From the IMG/VR virus record IMGVR_UViG_2778261631_000002: a stretch of DNA of 64,000 nt; one strand, 5' to 3'. The translations under genes and the position numbers were made by a program. Positions within the stretch are counted from its first letter, which is position 1, and every line of letters starts with the position of its first letter. This document shows positions 4,816 through 33,585 of this stretch, piece by piece. Source of the stretch: a virus. Taxonomy: Duplodnaviria > Heunggongvirae > Uroviricota > Caudoviricetes. Below the pieces are notes generated by a model, which worked only from the letters and a program-made list of their open reading frames with translations, was not told the origin of the DNA and did no database searches.

Positions 4816-7803
4816 ATGAGCTTAAGCGATCAGGTGGTAATGGCCACCAGCATAGAAACGCTGATCGAGCTGCTAAAGAACCTGCCCGATTATGGGCGGG
4901 TTTCGTATGTGGTGACAGCGAAGGGAGACGAGGTAAAAACAGCGTTTGATATCGTCGATGCCTCAGCTCTTTTGGTATCCAATACTCTGGATGGGAAAAT
5001 TAATCCAGACTATCCCCAGGAACTTCAGCCGCGCGACCGGACCCGCGCATCCAGCCTTCTTCAGGTCAACCAGATATCCAAGGATTTGCGTCCTGCCCAG
5101 CTTACCGATTCCGGTTTATCCAGCCATGGCGCGCCAATAATTGGTGAGGACAATGCCGTTGAGTCAGGTAATGGGCGGACCATGGGGATCATTAAAGCCT
5201 ATCAGGACGGTAATGCGGATCGGTATCGGGAGTACCTGATTGAACATGCGACCGAATTCGGCATACGGCCTGAAAAGGTTGAATCAATGACGGCTCCGGT
5301 ACTGGTGCGCCGCCGGTTAACGAAGGTTGACCGTGTTCAGTTTGCCAAGGACTCAAATATTTCTGATCTCCAGGAAATGGCAGCCAGTGAAAAGGCTTTT
5401 GTTGATGCCGACAGCATAACACCGGCGATGATGGCGTTGTTTAACCCGTCAGAAAGCGGAGATCTGCTTAGCCGCAGTAATGACGCGTTTATTCGCGGAT
5501 TCATGACGCAAGTTGGTGCCACACAGGCTGCTGGCCTTGTAACGGAAGATGGGCGACCAACACGGCAACTTGTAGACCGTATACAAAACGCGATCTTTGC
5601 CAAGGCATATAAGGATGCGCGCCTGGTAAGGATGGTTGCAGAAGAACCTGATCCGGATATGCGTAATGTTCTGACGGCGCTTAATGCGGCAGCCAATGAT
5701 TTTGTCCAGATGCAGGCTTTATCAGGAGAAGCGCACAAGCAGGCTGTGACAACTATTGTTGATGGTATTGAGACAGCGGATAGTCTCGATAAAAAGGCGC
5801 TGGCGGCATTGAAAGATGCGGTAGACCTGGTAAGGCAATCGAAGGAGTCAGGCCAACATATTACCGATGTTATTGCTCAGGGGGATATGTTCAGCGAAAC
5901 AGCCCCGGAAGTGAAAGCTCTCGCGTTGTTCATCGTCGCGAATAACCGTAGCGCGAAGCGTATGGCCACCGCCTTTAAATTGATGGCTCAACGTATCAAT
6001 GATGAGTTACAGCACCAGGGCCAGGCGCTGGGGGATATGTTTGGCGGTGGTGATGTGTCGTTACAGGATATCCTTCGCCAGGTGTCTCAGGAACTGGAAA
6101 ACGAAGGCATGCAAGGGATATCCGGCGGTCTTTTCGAGTCCGTTTCCGGCGGTAGTTACAACGGTGTTGCTCCATATACCAGCTTGCTATTACATCGGGC
6201 ATCCGGCATCAAAGACATTATTCATCTGATCAGGCTGCTTTCCCGTACAGATCCCCAGGATGAACAGCTTGTACCAGTGCTTGCGCATTTTGTTCGAATG
6301 CCTGTTGCCGACGTGAATAAATGGTGCCGATTATTCGGTATCAGCAATTCGTTACTTCGCGGATTGTTAAATCACGCATCCTCCCTTGGGCGCGACGGCT
6401 TTGATGAGATAGCGCAGGCGATAAAAAACGGAGATATGCCACCAGCTATTGACTGGTTTTCCATTCGCCCAACCAGGGTGAAAGCATTCCTTAGAGCGGC
6501 GCAATCAGCATCACCATTGGCAGAAATGGTTCAGAGGTTATCGCTCATATTCACAGACCATACCGCGTTGGGTGATCTGACTCTGGACGAGATGAAAGAA
6601 GCCTCCATTCAGTGGGCCGATCAACAAAATGAGGTTAACTCAGACTTCTTGCCAGCATTCAGGAAGGCCGTTAGTAAAGCGGATGATGCCCGTGAAATTC
6701 TGAAGGCATTTAAGGCATTGCAAAGTCGTGTTAATAAACATGTCGGTGATATCGATGGGGTAACGGCGGAAGGCCGGGATATCCTTAAAGAGCACGGCAT
6801 AACGCCAGAGTTTATTGATGAGATCAGGACTGATATGCAGCGTGAGGTCGTATCGTCCCTGCAAATCGTAGCCAGAGCGTTGGCGGATGCTAATCCGAAG
6901 AGTGCGGCCATTGTTAACCGGGTTATTGGTGATATTGAAGCATCGGAGGGCATGGGGGCGCTGAAACTCTTCCTTTCGCGAGCGTTTAATCCTAACGGCA
7001 ATATTCTCCCTGGCATTATTGGTGAGGCTAAAAAGTATGTCAGTGAAGAAGAACTTGAGCAGCTTGACCAACTACTTAAGCGATTCTCATATAACCCGCA
7101 GACACGCTGGCAAATGAATCAGCGAAGTATGGGTTCGGTCCACGAGAAAGTGTTATCTGCCATGAACAGTGCGATCGCAAACTCATCCGTATCTGAAGAA
7201 AAAGCTCTTGAGTGGGCCGACTCTTTTATCACAGAAGAAGTGGAAGAAGCCCGCGCTGGACAGAATGGTGGGATAGACCTGCGCAAGGAACTTGCTGATA
7301 TTTATCGCCTGACTGGCGGGAAAATATCGACCTTATCAAAGGTAGTTCACCACCAGGGAAGGGCATATGCAAATCTAAATGGTGTTGTTGCTGTCAATTT
7401 GAACGATGAAAATGCAAGTGCACTGTGGCACGAGCTGGGTCATCATCTTGAGTACAGTAACCCTGGTTTGTTAGAGAAAGCCCGGTCATTCCTGAAGGCC
7501 AATGTTGAAGGGGATAAGCCATCTTTCGTCAATATCGGTGGGCGTGGCAAGCCTGAATGGTGCTTCAGATCTCGATTGAGTAATATTTATATGGCGAAGG
7601 TATACCCGCCAGCCTCAGTGAGTAATTCCGGGAAAATTCGGCAGAAATCACCGACTATTTCCAAAACGTCAGCAACGGAAGTATTCTCTATGGCTCTTCA
7701 GTTGTATCATGACAAAGAGGCCGCTGCCGCATCACTGATGAATGGTGACGGATTGCTGGAACTGTTATTAGGTGTGGCAAAGGAGCTAAATAATGCAGAT
7801 TAA
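4816..7803 (+). CDS. ddrB: large DarA-operon protein with a putative zinc-metallopeptidase HExxH motif
   Basis: 995-aa ORF following ddrA; contains WHELGHH (nt 7426-7446). Name by position and size. Confidence 0.75.
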   Translation: MSLSDQVVMATSIETLIELLKNLPDYGRVSYVVTAKGDEVKTAFDIVDASALLVSNTLDGKINPDYPQELQPRDRTRASSLLQVNQISKDLRPAQLTDSGLSSHGAPIIGEDNAVESGNGRTMGIIKAYQDGNADRYREYLIEHATEFGIRPEKVESMTAPVLVRRRLTKVDRVQFAKDSNISDLQEMAASEKAFVDADSITPAMMALFNPSESGDLLSRSNDAFIRGFMTQVGATQAAGLVTEDGRPTRQLVDRIQNAIFAKAYKDARLVRMVAEEPDPDMRNVLTALNAAANDFVQMQALSGEAHKQAVTTIVDGIETADSLDKKALAALKDAVDLVRQSKESGQHITDVIAQGDMFSETAPEVKALALFIVANNRSAKRMATAFKLMAQRINDELQHQGQALGDMFGGGDVSLQDILRQVSQELENEGMQGISGGLFESVSGGSYNGVAPYTSLLLHRASGIKDIIHLIRLLSRTDPQDEQLVPVLAHFVRMPVADVNKWCRLFGISNSLLRGLLNHASSLGRDGFDEIAQAIKNGDMPPAIDWFSIRPTRVKAFLRAAQSASPLAEMVQRLSLIFTDHTALGDLTLDEMKEASIQWADQQNEVNSDFLPAFRKAVSKADDAREILKAFKALQSRVNKHVGDIDGVTAEGRDILKEHGITPEFIDEIRTDMQREVVSSLQIVARALADANPKSAAIVNRVIGDIEASEGMGALKLFLSRAFNPNGNILPGIIGEAKKYVSEEELEQLDQLLKRFSYNPQTRWQMNQRSMGSVHEKVLSAMNSAIANSSVSEEKALEWADSFITEEVEEARAGQNGGIDLRKELADIYRLTGGKISTLSKVVHHQGRAYANLNGVVAVNLNDENASALWHELGHHLEYSNPGLLEKARSFLKANVEGDKPSFVNIGGRGKPEWCFRSRLSNIYMAKVYPPASVSNSGKIRQKSPTISKTSATEVFSMALQLYHDKEAAAASLMNGDGLLELLLGVAKELNNAD

Positions 7804-8101
7804 AATCGCAGCGCCATTAGGCGGAGATGCCATTATCGAATTTGATGATAATGAAGAAGTTTCCGGGCGTTTAAGCATTATCTCCGGTGACATTACCGAG
7901 GACATGATCGCTGAAGCCATAGCTGGAGCAAATCCCAATAGCTATATGGGATTCGTTAACACCCTTGATGCTCCCGCAAGTGATGTTCTCCGAACGCTGC
8001 ATCTTTACGCTGGCTGGTTTGTTGATTGGCCAGCAGTAGATGGTGGTGATGAGGACGACGACGATGATTTTGGTGATCATATAGACCAGATCATATATTA
8101 A
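7793..8101 (+). CDS. small acidic protein with poly-Asp tail, last gene of the darA operon
   Basis: 102-aa ORF overlapping the ddrB stop; C-terminus DGGDEDDDDDFGD; followed directly by a terminator. Confidence 0.5.
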   Translation: MQIKIAAPLGGDAIIEFDDNEEVSGRLSIISGDITEDMIAEAIAGANPNSYMGFVNTLDAPASDVLRTLHLYAGWFVDWPAVDGGDEDDDDDFGDHIDQIIY

Positions 8102-8103
8102 AG

Positions 8104-8129
8104 AAATCCCGCCAATCGGCGGGATTTTT
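8104..8129. terminator. bidirectional rho-independent terminator between convergent operons
   Basis: AAATCCCGCC-AATC-GGCGGGATTT hairpin with T-run on the plus strand and A-run upstream (T-run on the minus strand). Confidence 0.65.
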
Positions 8130-8132
8130 ACC

Positions 8133-9227
8133 TCACGAGAAGCTCTTTTCTGATGTCAGCCAACAGTGCTCGTGCAAATCTCTTGGTGGTTTTTCGACAA
8201 ATGCCTCTTCAGCCACATCCTGCCAGGGGATTTGTTTAGCCCATTCAGCTATAGCGTTATGGTTTGCCGAGAATAACGGTATTGTATAGGCCTTCAGCCA
8301 GTCTAATGTGCTGGAGTTGTGTTTTTGAGCGTGATGTTTCGCATGGTGTTTGGCGATCACGATCGTAGGCACTACCCATTTACTACCGTCAGTCATTGTG
8401 AAGTGCATATTACGGGGAACAGATGACTTTTCCATCAACTCCCGAATCCCGGGAAATTTCCCCAAGATCAATCGGCGATATTCATCGCTATTGCGCCCAC
8501 CAAACTCTTTGGCTTTGAATTCAAGATATGCTTCAGAAACGAGAGGTGAATCCTCTGTGTTTAGAGTTATCGCCGTGAAAAAACCAGCAGGATTGTTTTT
8601 ACTATGGGCCAACCGGTGATGCGAATCATAAAAGTACCCTTTCTCGCGTTCCGATGGTTTCGACAGCAACAGCAGGCGCGAGTCATAATTGGTTAAATTG
8701 CCAGTTATCACTGCATGAGCGCGATCGCTGATTTCCGCCGAGTTAATAACGATGAAAAGATCGTGCGGTCCAGTAAAACCAGCCAGAGACACTTCGTTAT
8801 TCAGACAATAGGTTATATAGACGCATCCCCATATTTCACTGATATGCACCAACCCTTTGTCAGGGTGCATTCTGAAATGATTGCCAAGAAAAGGGTGTTT
8901 TTGGGTAACTCGCTCCCAATAACGGAACATATAGTCAATTATTGTTTTTCGACTATCGTTAATAGCAGGAGAAACAACCACTGTACGGGAACACGAATAC
9001 AGTATTGTTTGCAGGATGCTAATCACTGCCACAATAGAGGTTTCCCCAATACCATGTGGTGTGGTGGCAGTGACTTTGGCTCCGGTGTTCTTTATCGCGT
9101 TAATAATTTTTGCTTGATGAGGTGTTAACTCAATATCAAGCAACTCTTTCGCTGCCAGTTCCCAATTGTCTTTATACTGTTCTATCAGTGCTAACCAGGC
9201 AGGTTCATTCTGTATACGATTAGTCAC
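8133..9227 (-). CDS. PacB-like protein: terminase large-subunit ATPase-domain paralog with degenerate Walker motifs and no nuclease domain
   Basis: 364-aa protein sharing [11 protein letters not shown] and flanking blocks with PacB (32101..33585), but Walker A is PHGIGET (PacB: SGHGTGKS) and the Walker B DE is replaced (FIVINSAE versus YIIDEASG). Confidence 0.6.
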   Translation of the reverse strand: MTNRIQNEPAWLALIEQYKDNWELAAKELLDIELTPHQAKIINAIKNTGAKVTATTPHGIGETSIVAVISILQTILYSCSRTVVVSPAINDSRKTIIDYMFRYWERVTQKHPFLGNHFRMHPDKGLVHISEIWGCVYITYCLNNEVSLAGFTGPHDLFIVINSAEISDRAHAVITGNLTNYDSRLLLLSKPSEREKGYFYDSHHRLAHSKNNPAGFFTAITLNTEDSPLVSEAYLEFKAKEFGGRNSDEYRRLILGKFPGIRELMEKSSVPRNMHFTMTDGSKWVVPTIVIAKHHAKHHAQKHNSSTLDWLKAYTIPLFSANHNAIAEWAKQIPWQDVAEEAFVEKPPRDLHEHCWLTSEKSFS

Positions 9228-10008
9228 TTTCCACCTCTTCCGTGGTGTTTTCTTGCAGTTCTGTTAATGCAGCACGACACAGGTTCCGGGCCTTGGCTAT
9301 AGCCACACTTTTGACTTCATCTGTCATCGTGCAGGTAATGTACTGATCGAGTTCTTCAGCGCGGATGATGCTTTTGCCAATCAGAAACTGTATTTGCCAG
9401 AGCAGATCGGCATCCATAATCAGAATTTCTGCCGGGCCTTCAGGGCCAGCCGGGAAGGAAACATAAGACTGTTTGCCAAGGCCGATAACTCGACAACTTG
9501 CTTCAAGAATTGCGCGCTTGAGGTCTGACTTTGTAACTGAAACAGGTTGATTTTCACCTGCGATTACGCCGTTGACATGGATGTGGAAGGGCATGTAGCT
9601 TGAAATTCGCTCTACTTTCCATACGCCAGCAAGCGATCCTTCATGCAGCACAATGGGGGTAACAGCGAGTTTCATCTCACCATATAACTGCTGGCAGATA
9701 GCTGGATTGCTGAATACATCCAAAGGTTCACACTCAAACAGCGGTGCAATCTGCATGAGGTCCATCATGGTCATACCTGGGGTACGAGCGGTAATGAATC
9801 TGCGCATGCCAGTATCCATTGTTCGCCAGATAGCTACACCATGCTTTTTGCTCACTTCTTCAGTAAAGCCAAGCTGGCACATGATGGTTTTTTCGATAGC
9901 CAGATCAGAGATAGAAACCTTTTCGCCAGGTACACCATCATTATTGATGGTCACTTCGACACTCTGGCCATTACGCAGGCGGTATTGAATTGCTTTAGTA
10001 TTTTCCAC
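9220..10008 (-). CDS. hypothetical protein (early operon with ssb)
   Basis: 262-aa ORF, start overlaps the upstream stop, same strand as ssb. Confidence 0.55.
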   Translation of the reverse strand: MENTKAIQYRLRNGQSVEVTINNDGVPGEKVSISDLAIEKTIMCQLGFTEEVSKKHGVAIWRTMDTGMRRFITARTPGMTMMDLMQIAPLFECEPLDVFSNPAICQQLYGEMKLAVTPIVLHEGSLAGVWKVERISSYMPFHIHVNGVIAGENQPVSVTKSDLKRAILEASCRVIGLGKQSYVSFPAGPEGPAEILIMDADLLWQIQFLIGKSIIRAEELDQYITCTMTDEVKSVAIAKARNLCRAALTELQENTTEEVESD

Positions 10009-10014
10009 GTTAAA

Positions 10015-10692
10015 TCACTCCACTACAAACCAGTCACATGCCAGTAAGTCGCATACAGAAGGCACCCACGGAACAACTACACCTTGTGCATTTTTTAAGG
10101 CGAAATAAGCACCATACGGAACGAGGTCGCCGGGGAAATATCCCTTAATGGCTTCCATTCGTGCCGGGTACTGTCCTTCAGGAACCAGCCAGCAGAATTG
10201 GTTTTCGCCGTTCCACCCGCGTCGAGCAACTTTCTTGCCATCCTTCAGCCACATCAGCGCGTCAGAAAAGTCGGCTGCTTCAAGGTCGATTTCTTCTTGT
10301 GTGGTAATGATGCCACTGGCAGCAATAGTTACGTCCCTGGCTGTAATGAATGTCACCCCATTGTGACCTTCAATACTGAGCGATACCCCATTTTCGAAGA
10401 AGTCGTTAGTCCGACTAAAGCCTTCTTCAAATGTTTTTTCTGGTGAATAGGACAGAGATCCGTCCTCATAAGCGACCAGATATCCGCCAATTTCTGGTCG
10501 GTGTTTTTGCAAAAACATTTTATCAACATGGACTTTTACCCCTTCTGGCTCAACGACTTCGATGTTGCAAAAAAGGACCACATCCATTAGGGCGATAATT
10601 TCGATATCTTTGATTTTTGAGGCGCGAACTGTTTTATGGCTTTTGTATTTTGGAAGTGCCGTCAAAAGCTCTTTCGTTGTCATGTTATTCAT
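10015..10692 (-). CDS. hypothetical protein with DUF2829-like C-terminal region
   Basis: Likely start at MNNMTTKELL (the listed ORF extends to 10812); C-terminal DALMWLKDGKKVARRGWNG resembles the phage DUF2829 pattern, from memory. Confidence 0.5.
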   Translation of the reverse strand: MNNMTTKELLTALPKYKSHKTVRASKIKDIEIIALMDVVLFCNIEVVEPEGVKVHVDKMFLQKHRPEIGGYLVAYEDGSLSYSPEKTFEEGFSRTNDFFENGVSLSIEGHNGVTFITARDVTIAASGIITTQEEIDLEAADFSDALMWLKDGKKVARRGWNGENQFCWLVPEGQYPARMEAIKGYFPGDLVPYGAYFALKNAQGVVVPWVPSVCDLLACDWFVVE

Positions 10693-10889
10693 AGTCTTTC
10701 CTCTGCTTAAAACCTGATGTATTGCGCCTTCAGGTGGGTCAGGAATGTTTTCCCACCAGCGAAAGCAATATCTCGGGGTGTTCTTTTCGTGAAAAGCGCG
10801 TGCCATTGCCAACTTTGGCGTTTTTTAGCGAGTTCGTGCTTTTGTTGGCGTTTGGACCACCGCTTTTCTTTCAGTCGTTTTTTACACAT

Positions 10890-11378
10890 TCAAAACGGAA
10901 TATCGTCGTCAAAGTCCATTGGAGGTTCGTTATTGGCGTTGCTCTGAGGTTTACCGCCACCGCTGTATTGCTGGTGGTTTTGAGGTTGGTTTGATTGCCC
11001 CCAGCCATTTGAGGACTGTGAATCGTCACGGCGAGCGCCGATCATTTGCATGGTGCCGCCCTGGCTGACGATAATTTCCGTCGTGTAACGTTCTACACCG
11101 GCGTCATCTGTCCACTTACGGGTTTTAAGTTTCCCTTCGATGTAGACCTGAGAACCTTTTCGTAAATACTCACTCGCAATTTCAGCAAGTTTTCCGAACA
11201 AAACGACTTTATGCCATTCTGTTTGCTCTTTCTGTTGGCCCGTTTGCTTGTCGCGCCATGATTCATTCGTTGCGATGCTGAGTCTTCCGACCGCGCCGCC
11301 ATTTGGTATATACCTGATCTCCGGGTCTTGCCCCAGGGTACCAATCAGGATGACTTTGTTTACACCGCGTTGTGCCAC
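10890..11378 (-). CDS. ssb: single-stranded DNA-binding protein
   Basis: 162-aa protein, N-terminal OB fold nearly colinear with E. coli SSB, Gly/Gln-rich linker and acidic C-terminal tail DFDDDIPF. Confidence 0.95.
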
Positions 11379-11397
11379 TTATCTTACCTAATAAAAT

Positions 11398-11414
11398 AAA
11401 TTAATTAGAGCAAT
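11398..11414. promoter_or_regulatory. C1 operator-like site (1 mismatch to consensus) upstream of ssb
   Basis: AAATTAATTAGAGCAAT versus the reverse complement of ATTGCTCTAATAAATTT. Confidence 0.6.
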
Positions 11415-32100: not shown

Positions 32101-33585
32101 TTATTCATTAAGCCATGCCAGAGCTTCATCAACCTGCGCTTCGTCTTCGACGCTAAGCACTTCATCTTGGGGAACATAGTTCGCCAACATAGCGAAACAA
32201 TATGTATCCCAATGGTCCGGTGAGTGCAGGTTGAGTTTTTTCTTCATATCTTCCTTTGACATCACCTTCCATTGACCTGCGGAATTTATCCCTACCGGTA
32301 TCTTTGATGCTTCCTCTATAGTCGCAGCCCCCTTATCAAGCCGCATACGCCCTGATTTTACAGCTTCTGCCGCCTGAATATTCGCGAAAGCGCGCATATC
32401 GAAATAAAGGCTTTTATCTTCACGGCTGTGCATCTTTTTACCCCAGCGGATACGCTGGACGGTAATGCCATAGCGTTCGTACATTAGATCAGCCGTCGAT
32501 TTCCCCAAGCCATCGCCATCAATAGCTATGGTTATGTTCGGGAACCGTTCTGGGTTACATTCTGCGAAAATCTTGGCGGCTAACTGCGTTTCTGTAACGT
32601 CTGTGTATTCCAGCATACGATAGTTGATTACACGGCGTTTATTTCGCTGGCCGGACACCATCATGATATTAATAACGGACTTATCTCGTCCTGTGCCACC
32701 AGCAACGTCAACACATGCAACCCAGCCCCATCCTTTGGCAATCTTGACCTTTCGCCGCGTCGCCCGCTCAACCTCATCACGACCAAGAAGAAAGCCATCT
32801 TGAGATTTGGGAAATTCACCACGTACTTTGATCATGTACATGGGGTTATCACGACCGCCATACTCCGCAAGTTTTGCTCGTATAAATTTTGCATCTACAA
32901 GCGGAGATTCTTCACTATTCAGTATTATCGCAGTAAACAATCCATCAGGATTTCCCGGGCGAATAGCTAGTCTGTGGTGTGAATCGTAGAAATAGCCTGA
33001 AGGTCGCGTAGGCTGGGAAAGAAGCAGAATACGGTTATCCTTACCGGTCAGCGCACCTGTTATCACACTGAATGCTTTATCACTCACACCCGACGCTTCG
33101 TCGATGATATACAAGAGATGATCGGCGTGTTCACCAGCCAACGCCTCCTCATTTCCGGGGCGACAGGACTTTATCAATATTGTCCAAACACCCTTGCCAG
33201 TCACCTCAAAAAAAGACGTTTCTGTAAGAATGAAATACTTCGACAACCACGGGAATCTGCTAACAGCAGTAGCCCAATTGCTCTTTATGTATTTGAAAAT
33301 ACCATCAAGGACTTGCTGTCTTTTGTTAGCGACCAGAATGACGCGAGCGCCGGGGAAAAACATGATGAAGAGTATTGCAATGATACTCGTCATATCCGAT
33401 TTACCAGTACCATGGCCGGAGGTCACACTTGTCCAACTGCCGTCCTGCTGCGTGGACTCAATGATCTCATCCTGCTGCCAGGTTGGTGTCTTCCCAAACA
33501 ACACATCAGCGGCCGCAATCCAGTCATAACGATATAGCGCCACAAGCTCGCGCCAACGTGGGTCCGTTACGCAACTTCTGGCCAT
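32101..33585 (-). CDS. pacB: terminase large subunit (pacase)
   Basis: 494-aa protein with Walker A SGHGTGKS, Walker [10 protein letters not shown] and a C-terminal nuclease-like domain; follows pacA. Confidence 0.93.

Follow-up and report, generated by a model that had tools for sequence, protein, structure and literature searches.

The 64,000-nucleotide stretch of DNA analysed here as a whole (the window; IMG/VR record IMGVR_UViG_2778261631_000002) is a P1-like phage-plasmid. Its region 7800..11400 was 97-98% identical to Punavirus records, and the window also encodes ddrB, hxr, ssb and pacA/pacB and contains many C1 operators. Between an isaA homologue and hxr lies a gene for a 364-aa protein resembling the ATPase domain of PacB, the large terminase subunit (TerL), and we refer to it as the pseudo-terminase. 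A first-pass annotation of the sequence had already noticed that this gene sits with ssb and not with the packaging genes; indeed, pacA/pacB were located about 23 kb away. The results described below led us to conclude that, very probably, residues 1-262 are a catalytically dead paralog of the PacB ATPase domain and the whole protein is a selectively maintained pseudo-enzyme with a fused tail.

The features of the locus are summarized in Table 1. A Shine-Dalgarno sequence, GAGGTG, is found 6 nt 5' of the GTG start codon, and the start of the gene overlaps the stop of the isaA homologue by 8 nt (GTGACTAA). The GC content of the gene was 44.4%, the lowest of its neighbourhood, compared with 47.8% for pacB and 48.1% for the window.

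Table 1 Features of the pseudo-terminase locus and of pacB, in window coordinates.
Feature	Position	Strand	Remarks
GC-rich hairpin between convergent pseudo-terminase and hxr	8104..8127	.	Likely bidirectional terminator ending the operon (consensus scan)
Pseudo-terminase coding sequence	8133..9227	(-)	364 aa, GTG start at 9227; PacB ATPase-domain paralog plus C-terminal domain
C-terminal domain, residues 263-364	8136..8441	(-)	About 95 aa; unrelated to PacB nuclease domain
TerL ATPase-like part, residues 1-262	8442..9227	(-)	Catalytically degenerate (BLASTP, AF2, Foldseek)
11-residue block (GYFYDSHH block)	8607..8639	(-)	Same in PacB and pseudo-terminase
Degenerate Walker B	8736..8759	(-)	LFIVINSA (PacB: LLYIIDEA)
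Degenerate Walker A	9039..9065	(-)	TTPHGIGET (PacB: TSGHGTGKS; Lys62 to Glu)
isaA homologue, upstream partner gene	9220..10008	(-)	262 aa; 95% identical to P1 IsaA
Tad2-like gene (DUF2829, anti-Thoeris family)	10015..10692	(-)	225 aa; PF11195 (E=5e-23; score 81.8 bits, cut-off 25)
ssb	10890..11378	(-)	First gene of presumed operon
C1 repressor operator (Ossb/Op21 of P1)	11398..11414	(-)	ATTGCTCTAATTAATTT; 1 mismatch to consensus
pacB, genuine large terminase	32101..33585	(-)	494 aa; intact SGHGTGKS and IIDEAS; parent-type gene for comparison

Homology to PacB, the catalytic motifs and the tail

When the pseudo-terminase was compared with PacB by BLASTP, 100 of 295 aligned residues were identical (34%; 54% positives; E=1e-51), and the alignment spanned residue 1 to about residue 285 of both proteins. 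The two proteins are accordingly paralogs, as had been proposed, and the similarity extends far beyond a low-complexity patch. The block described as identical at 11/11 positions was present in this alignment. We also looked for a third PacB-like gene in the window; only these two PacB-like open reading frames (ORFs) were present. An AlphaFold2 (AF2) model built with 36 sequences had a predicted local distance difference test score (pLDDT) of 88.4 and a predicted template modelling score (pTM) of 0.84, with residues 1-262 mostly above 90. The model resembled terminase ATPase domains: the 31 best Foldseek matches in the PDB were all TerL proteins, with E-values down to 6e-9, and the top matches were Sf6 gp2, P74-26, T4 gp17, D6E and HK97 TerL.

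The catalytic motifs, on the other hand, were degenerate, as the first-pass annotation had stated. The P-loop lysine is missing from Walker A and the acidic pair of Walker B is replaced; the Asp-Glu of PacB corresponds to Ile-Asn in the profile alignment or to Asn-Ser in the BLASTP register. Furthermore, the coupling motif reads SKPS, versus SQPT in PacB. The possibility that an alternative frame restores the Walker motifs was rejected, because [AG]xxxxGK[ST] was found in no frame of 8000..9400 and hhhhD[DE] was absent from the pseudo-terminase protein. Since both Walker motifs, SQPT and the invariant His are lost, the pseudo-terminase should not hydrolyse ATP or translocate DNA.

The protein had also been described as lacking the approximately 130-aa nuclease domain. 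Compared with PacB, it is indeed 130 aa shorter; PacB residues ~265-494 have no counterpart in it, which means that the nuclease domain is missing and that the protein cannot cut pac. It is, however, not a simple truncation, and an unrelated domain was gained: residues 263-364 are a small phage-specific domain acquired by fusion. This tail consists of a beta-hairpin followed by helices and carries the motif TMxDGSxWxVP...T.PLF...W. It gave no Pfam match, a profile search of PDB sequences was empty, its structure resembled no solved structure, and BFVD gave only uncharacterised homologues. A word-indexed homologue search with the tail returned two fragments only.

Relatives of the tail were nevertheless found in other phages. 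In Cronobacter phage JK004, a 98-aa stand-alone gene directly follows a DnaB-type helicase gene (L031 4001..4297). In Xanthomonas phage Tenjo, the domain ends a 471-aa protein composed of DUF1351 and a long Ala/Glu/Gln/Arg-rich coiled coil (L032 1894..3309), the gene of which adjoins recombinase, exonuclease and SSB genes. Further proteins with this domain occur in Bordetella phage PHB04 and Sinorhizobium phage phiM9. In the metagenomic protein P0143, the tail domain comes first and a dead ATPase domain second, and the gene is cut by a Tn3-type transposase (L037 8001..10384). The joining of the two domains in both orders argues that the modules work together. The contig L037 was also observed to carry AbiH and a Ref-like nuclease. 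No separate tail-domain gene was found in the examined stretches of elements whose paralogs consist of the ATPase domain only. The ~95-aa tail is an undescribed, mobile phage domain.

Motif-dead relatives, selection and distribution

An exhaustive profile search of 1.84 billion representatives yielded 1,182 relatives, and the best 150 were scored for the motifs. Among these 150, almost all genuine terminases keep GxGK[S/T] and DE, and about 15 sequence clusters lack both motifs. The latter come from P1-like elements and mostly comprise the ATPase domain only. Full-length motif-dead forms are the window protein, P0124 and P0002; P0125, P0127, P0128, P0131, P0133, P0164 and P0166 are ATPase-only proteins of 244-268 aa; and P0129 is motif-dead with a different C-terminus.

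Twelve dead paralogs were then compared with 131 PacB-type terminases at the columns that at least 90% of the latter conserve (PacB numbering). K62, D162 and E163 were present in all 131 terminases, and Walker A Lys/Ser, Walker B Asp/Glu, SQPT and the invariant His were conserved in at least 98% of them. K62, E163, Q191, T193, H153 and S56 were kept in none of the 12 dead paralogs, S165 in one and D162 in two, and the column of the P-loop Lys reads E, H, R, M, T, I, C, T, D, R, R and R. Other columns were well preserved: Q38, G59, A150, G151, F199 and Y200 in all 12 paralogs; G61, S190, G197, S227, P228 and F258 in 11; and H203 and H204 of the GYFYDSHH block in 10 each. This column pattern indicates that the fold and some surfaces were kept while the chemistry was discarded, and catalytic death is a trait of the whole family.

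In a distance-based (neighbour-joining) tree, the dead paralogs except P0164 grouped together inside the PacB clade of P1-like elements. Bootstrap support was weak, however, at 0/100 for the complete set of dead paralogs and 26/100 for a core of nine, and they may have had one origin or several.

The context of several relatives was read from short metagenomic contigs. The ATPase-only relatives occur among rows of small genes, early or accessory, in other P1-like elements that also encode a Cre-like recombinase, C1, PacA and PacB; wherever enough of an element's sequence was available, a genuine pacB was present as well. In a distant P1-like lineage, there is a 4-nt overlap between a 263-aa ATPase-only paralog and the stop of a gene for a Ref-like RecA-dependent nuclease, PF16786 (L021 9336..10792; L022; L023). 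A weak IsaA homologue (27% over 146 aa) was seen about 3 kb from this type of paralog in L021/L022. The ref-adjacent slot is the place of the unrelated mat in P1. P1 Mat was examined as a candidate ATPase-only paralog and rejected, as it showed no significant similarity to PacB, the pseudo-terminase or P0131. Another ATPase-only relative follows a radical-SAM gene, and for P0128 no related locus was found in viral contigs. P0002 could not be placed on a contig.

We then examined whether the gene is maintained. Of the 120 PLSDB plasmid records with the gene, 119 had it at full length (93.7-100% identity), as did all 101 records found in E. coli, which came from 100 of the 5,426 complete genomes. 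In ten pairwise comparisons of five alleles, the ratio of nonsynonymous to synonymous substitution rates (dN/dS) was 0.20-0.61 and no internal stops were observed. For the most diverged allele pair, dN/dS was 0.16 for the tail and 0.33 for the ATPase-like part, suggesting that the tail is at least as constrained as the latter in that pair. Homologues from D6-type elements were 47-53% identical and kept the two-domain architecture, and the PacB proteins of those elements were 56% identical. Since the divergence of the pseudo-terminase between the P1 and D6 lineages (52% identity) is near that of PacB (56%), the gene has been retained for roughly the time since the two lineages separated. The earlier view that the gene is repurposed, and not decaying, agrees with these findings.

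When PLSDB prevalence was counted by megablast, the pseudo-terminase was found in 120 records, the Tad2-like gene in 229, the isaA-like gene in 406 and pacB in 594 (220 at ≥90% identity). The pseudo-terminase occurs in about 2% of complete E. coli genomes and in roughly half of P1-type plasmids. Among deposited phage genomes, three carry it, and P1, P7, D6, RCS47, SJ46 and JL22 have PacB only. As for conservation across P1-like phages, which the first-pass annotation had raised as a check, the gene is kept and under selection in its carriers but is accessory, being absent from P1, P7 and D6. It is an accessory gene of P1/D6-type phage-plasmids, carried in a cassette with IsaA and usually the Tad2-like gene. 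Because it lies in a hypervariable slot and is missing from those three phages, it belongs outside the core early programme. The same absence from the laboratory phages explains why it went unnoticed, and literature searches found no report on it. In RefSeq the product is labelled hypothetical, and in GenBank MH422554.1 (16006..17100) and MH445380.1 it is labelled 'terminase large subunit'. Judged from the motifs and domains described above, the latter label is wrong, and owing to it these two records appear to hold two large terminases. The pseudo-terminase thus exposes an annotation error.

Genomic context and presumed early control

The ssb, Tad2-like and pseudo-terminase genes and the isaA homologue are all on the (-) strand, and the C1 operator lies 20 bp 5' of the ssb start. 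Promoters and terminators were called by consensus scans; on the (-) strand between ssb and the terminator, the promoter scan found none. Within the presumed operon, ssb is followed by a 197-nt gap. Co-transcription with ssb under a C1 operator had been asserted; the operator and the common strand were confirmed, but co-transcription itself is a plausible reading of the sequence. Early co-transcription of the pseudo-terminase with ssb is likewise plausible. When the C1 operator consensus was searched with up to 3 mismatches, 15 sites were observed in the window versus 0.37 expected by chance. These include 30566, 30649, 44410, 60247 and 63769, and paired or overlapping sites were seen at 60236/60247, 30566/30649 and 46502/46551.

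Across the hairpin, the pseudo-terminase adjoins the convergent hxr-ddrB genes, part of the Dar anti-restriction operon. The slot between ssb and hxr has been described as hypervariable in the literature, where it is called RD-2 or 'region 2' (PMC6906374, PMC9603915). The Tad2-like ORF was listed as 10015..10812 with a TTG start at 10812. The profile matches and the RefSeq annotation of its relatives start at Met41 (10692), and the listed start is probably wrong. The protein has an extra N-terminal domain of about 130 aa that short Tad2 proteins lack. Among phage-plasmids, 56% of the P1 type and 93% of the D6 type have been scored as carrying Tad2 as an anti-defence (anti-Thoeris) gene (bioRxiv 10.1101/2025.09.12.675607). 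The pseudo-terminase is therefore co-located with known anti-defence genes in a variable, presumed early region.

Searches of Pfam and the PDB with the IsaA homologue found nothing. In both P1- and D6-type elements it accompanies the pseudo-terminase as a conserved partner. P1 IsaA was named merely for adjoining IS1 (P1 copy at L001 4515..5477). In reference P1 (NC_005856, L001 2800..4520), the slot reads isaA-IS1-isaB. Comparison of P1 with window positions 8100..9230 showed a clean cassette swap with boundaries exactly at the hxr and isaA stop codons; isaB, IS1 and about 95 nt of unrelated DNA stand in P1 where the window has the pseudo-terminase. The possibility that P1 isaB is a remnant of a pseudo-terminase split by IS1 was rejected, as the similarity ends at the two stop codons and isaB is unrelated cargo. 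The Tad2-like/IsaA-like/paralog trio is found again in D6-type elements, close to cre and a dUTPase gene, at a distance of about 4.5 kb from pacB and away from ssb. D6 itself has the Tad2-like and IsaA-like genes, and the paralog is absent.

Candidate roles and comparison with known systems

As the protein is conserved and yet its catalytic residues are lost, it probably acts by binding. The reading that we favour, at a probability of about 0.3, is that the pseudo-terminase engages terminase-sensing immunity non-productively, as a terminase mimic. It would be made early, before PacB appears, would mimic the monomeric terminase ATPase domain and would act by binding host sensors that recognise this domain (Avs1-3, Upx). 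A mimic without an ATP/Mg site could occupy or titrate the sensor and would give no signal for assembly of the active oligomer; the occupied sensor would then leave late-made PacB shielded. Of the terminase, EcAvs2 requires just the ATPase domain, the bound ATP of which it contacts via a bridging ATP (PMC13601566). The stand-alone TerL-ATPase paralog vs.8 of T4, with intact Walker motifs, triggers EcAvs2 (PMC13601566), and proteins of the vs.8 and Ksap1/Ksap2 types have been speculated by their authors to be anti-defence factors (PMC13601566, PMC11564622). The neighbourhood fits such a role: the Tad2-like gene is in the cassette, the Dar genes hxr and ddrB are adjacent, and the cassette recurs elsewhere in D6-type elements.

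Proteins of the Tad2 family soak up a nucleotide-derived immune signal. In a variant of the mimic reading, the dead domain of the pseudo-terminase may itself soak up such a signal, given its conserved adenine-contact Gln and P-loop glycines. The broader proposal, that P1-like phage-plasmids carry a family of early, ATP-site-dead terminase mimics which bind Avs1-3 and Upx non-productively and so conceal the terminase, the one protein indispensable to a tailed phage, is rather unlikely. If true, these mimics would be the first known case of a decoy for a phage 'pattern' protein that is conserved.

Several observations weigh against a mimic. The decoy step is guilt by association, and the early transcription was deduced from sequence. 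T4 vs.8 activates Avs2 and does not block it (PMC13601566), and a mimic could therefore be a liability. No PADLOC or named-family match was obtained, nor any homology to a protein with shown anti-defence activity; Pfam, NCBIfam and PADLOC gave no family match for the pseudo-terminase or for the IsaA homologue. The ATPase-only relatives adjoin a Ref-like nuclease gene, a radical-SAM gene or small uncharacterised genes, and not recognised anti-defence genes. The tail domain elsewhere accompanies DnaB, RecT, exonuclease and SSB, which points towards DNA metabolism. Finally, IsaA was found in 406 plasmid records versus 120 for the pseudo-terminase, so that the cassette is not obligate.

A role in modulating or interfering with packaging is a doubtful but serious alternative. 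Here the dead domain would keep the PacB surfaces for PacA, PacB subunits or the portal, and would either modulate the pacase of the phage that encodes it, for instance by keeping PacA inactive at early times, or act as a dominant-negative subunit that poisons the terminase of a competing P1-like element within one cell. Conservation between the two proteins is best in the first 35 residues and in the GYFYDSHH block, both specific to PacB-type terminases, and the position of the dead paralogs within the PacB clade of P1-like elements is in line with such a role. The similar divergence of the paralog and PacB between the two lineages is consistent with long co-residence, and each sufficiently sequenced element also has a genuine pacB. 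However, packaging is normal in P1, P7 and D6, which lack the gene, so that control of packaging does not require it. As the surfaces with which PacB binds PacA and the portal are unmapped, a retained interface is conjecture, and C1 control argues against shielding of a lysogen from superinfecting relatives.

We consider it rather unlikely that the pseudo-terminase is a replication or recombination accessory. Its dead RecA-like domain would then statically bind DNA or a replication protein and its tail would dock to SSB, DnaB or recombination proteins, so as to protect or mark replication intermediates or to pass concatemers to the packaging machinery. This role would suit the presumed ssb operon, the tail-domain gene just downstream of the helicase gene in JK004, and the Tenjo protein beside recombinase, exonuclease and SSB genes. 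The ATPase-only relatives that overlap the stop of the Ref-like nuclease gene, and another relative near a Ref-like gene, also fit. Nevertheless, the cassette lies away from ssb in D6-type elements, and the gene is dispensable in the reference phages.

A still-active NTPase with non-canonical motifs is very improbable. Gln38, G59 and G61 are conserved in all or nearly all members, and a nucleotide or nucleotide-like ligand may be bound, but the family has no Lys/Arg at a fixed P-loop position and no conserved acidic Walker B residue, and the coupling motif is lost. Least probable of all is a slowly decaying relic of a pacB duplication: the lost catalytic motifs, the GC content below that of pacB and the patchy presence among relatives would fit, but the reading frame is intact in essentially all copies, dN/dS is well below 1, the architecture is unchanged at about 50% identity, the ~15 diverged motif-dead clusters keep fold-defining residues, the AF2 fold is confident, and a second domain was gained and fused in both orders across lineages.

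The large terminase is the phage protein most widely sensed by bacterial immunity, and a conserved, presumed early, dead copy of the sensed domain beside counter-defence genes is a concrete candidate for how phages cope with terminase sensing. Even if its role is in packaging or replication instead, the pseudo-terminase would be the first example of a pseudo-enzyme that derives from a viral packaging motor.

Among known proteins, PacB shares with the pseudo-terminase the whole ATPase domain, the N-terminal helices, the GYFYDSHH block and the predicted fold. The pseudo-terminase differs in having lost the Walker A Lys, the Walker B Asp-Glu, SQPT and His153, and in carrying an unrelated C-terminal domain in place of the nuclease domain. 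Moreover, PacB is universal and belongs to the packaging gene pair, whereas the pseudo-terminase is accessory and sits with ssb behind a C1 operator. In PHROGs, the family holding the pseudo-terminase is phrog_5902, which carries no functional annotation. It matches the protein end to end (residues 2-364 aligned to positions 2-359 of the 359-position profile, E=1.1e-183), and PacB also scores against this profile, via the ATPase domain.

T4 vs.8 is likewise a second, stand-alone copy of the TerL ATPase outside the packaging genes, without a nuclease domain and dispensable; we likened it to the pseudo-terminase by its published description (PMC13601566). It keeps Walker A and B, and binding of ATP by vs.8 within the pocket of Avs2 has been predicted, whereas the pseudo-terminase has lost these motifs and has an extra domain. 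Ksap2, a KpAvs2 activator of Stephanstirmvirinae (PMC11564622), is similarly accessory, dispensable, confined to one phage lineage and linked to the TerL ATPase. Ksap2, however, is much smaller and shows weak structural similarity to the TerL ATPase with no terminase sequence homology, whereas the pseudo-terminase is a clear sequence homologue.

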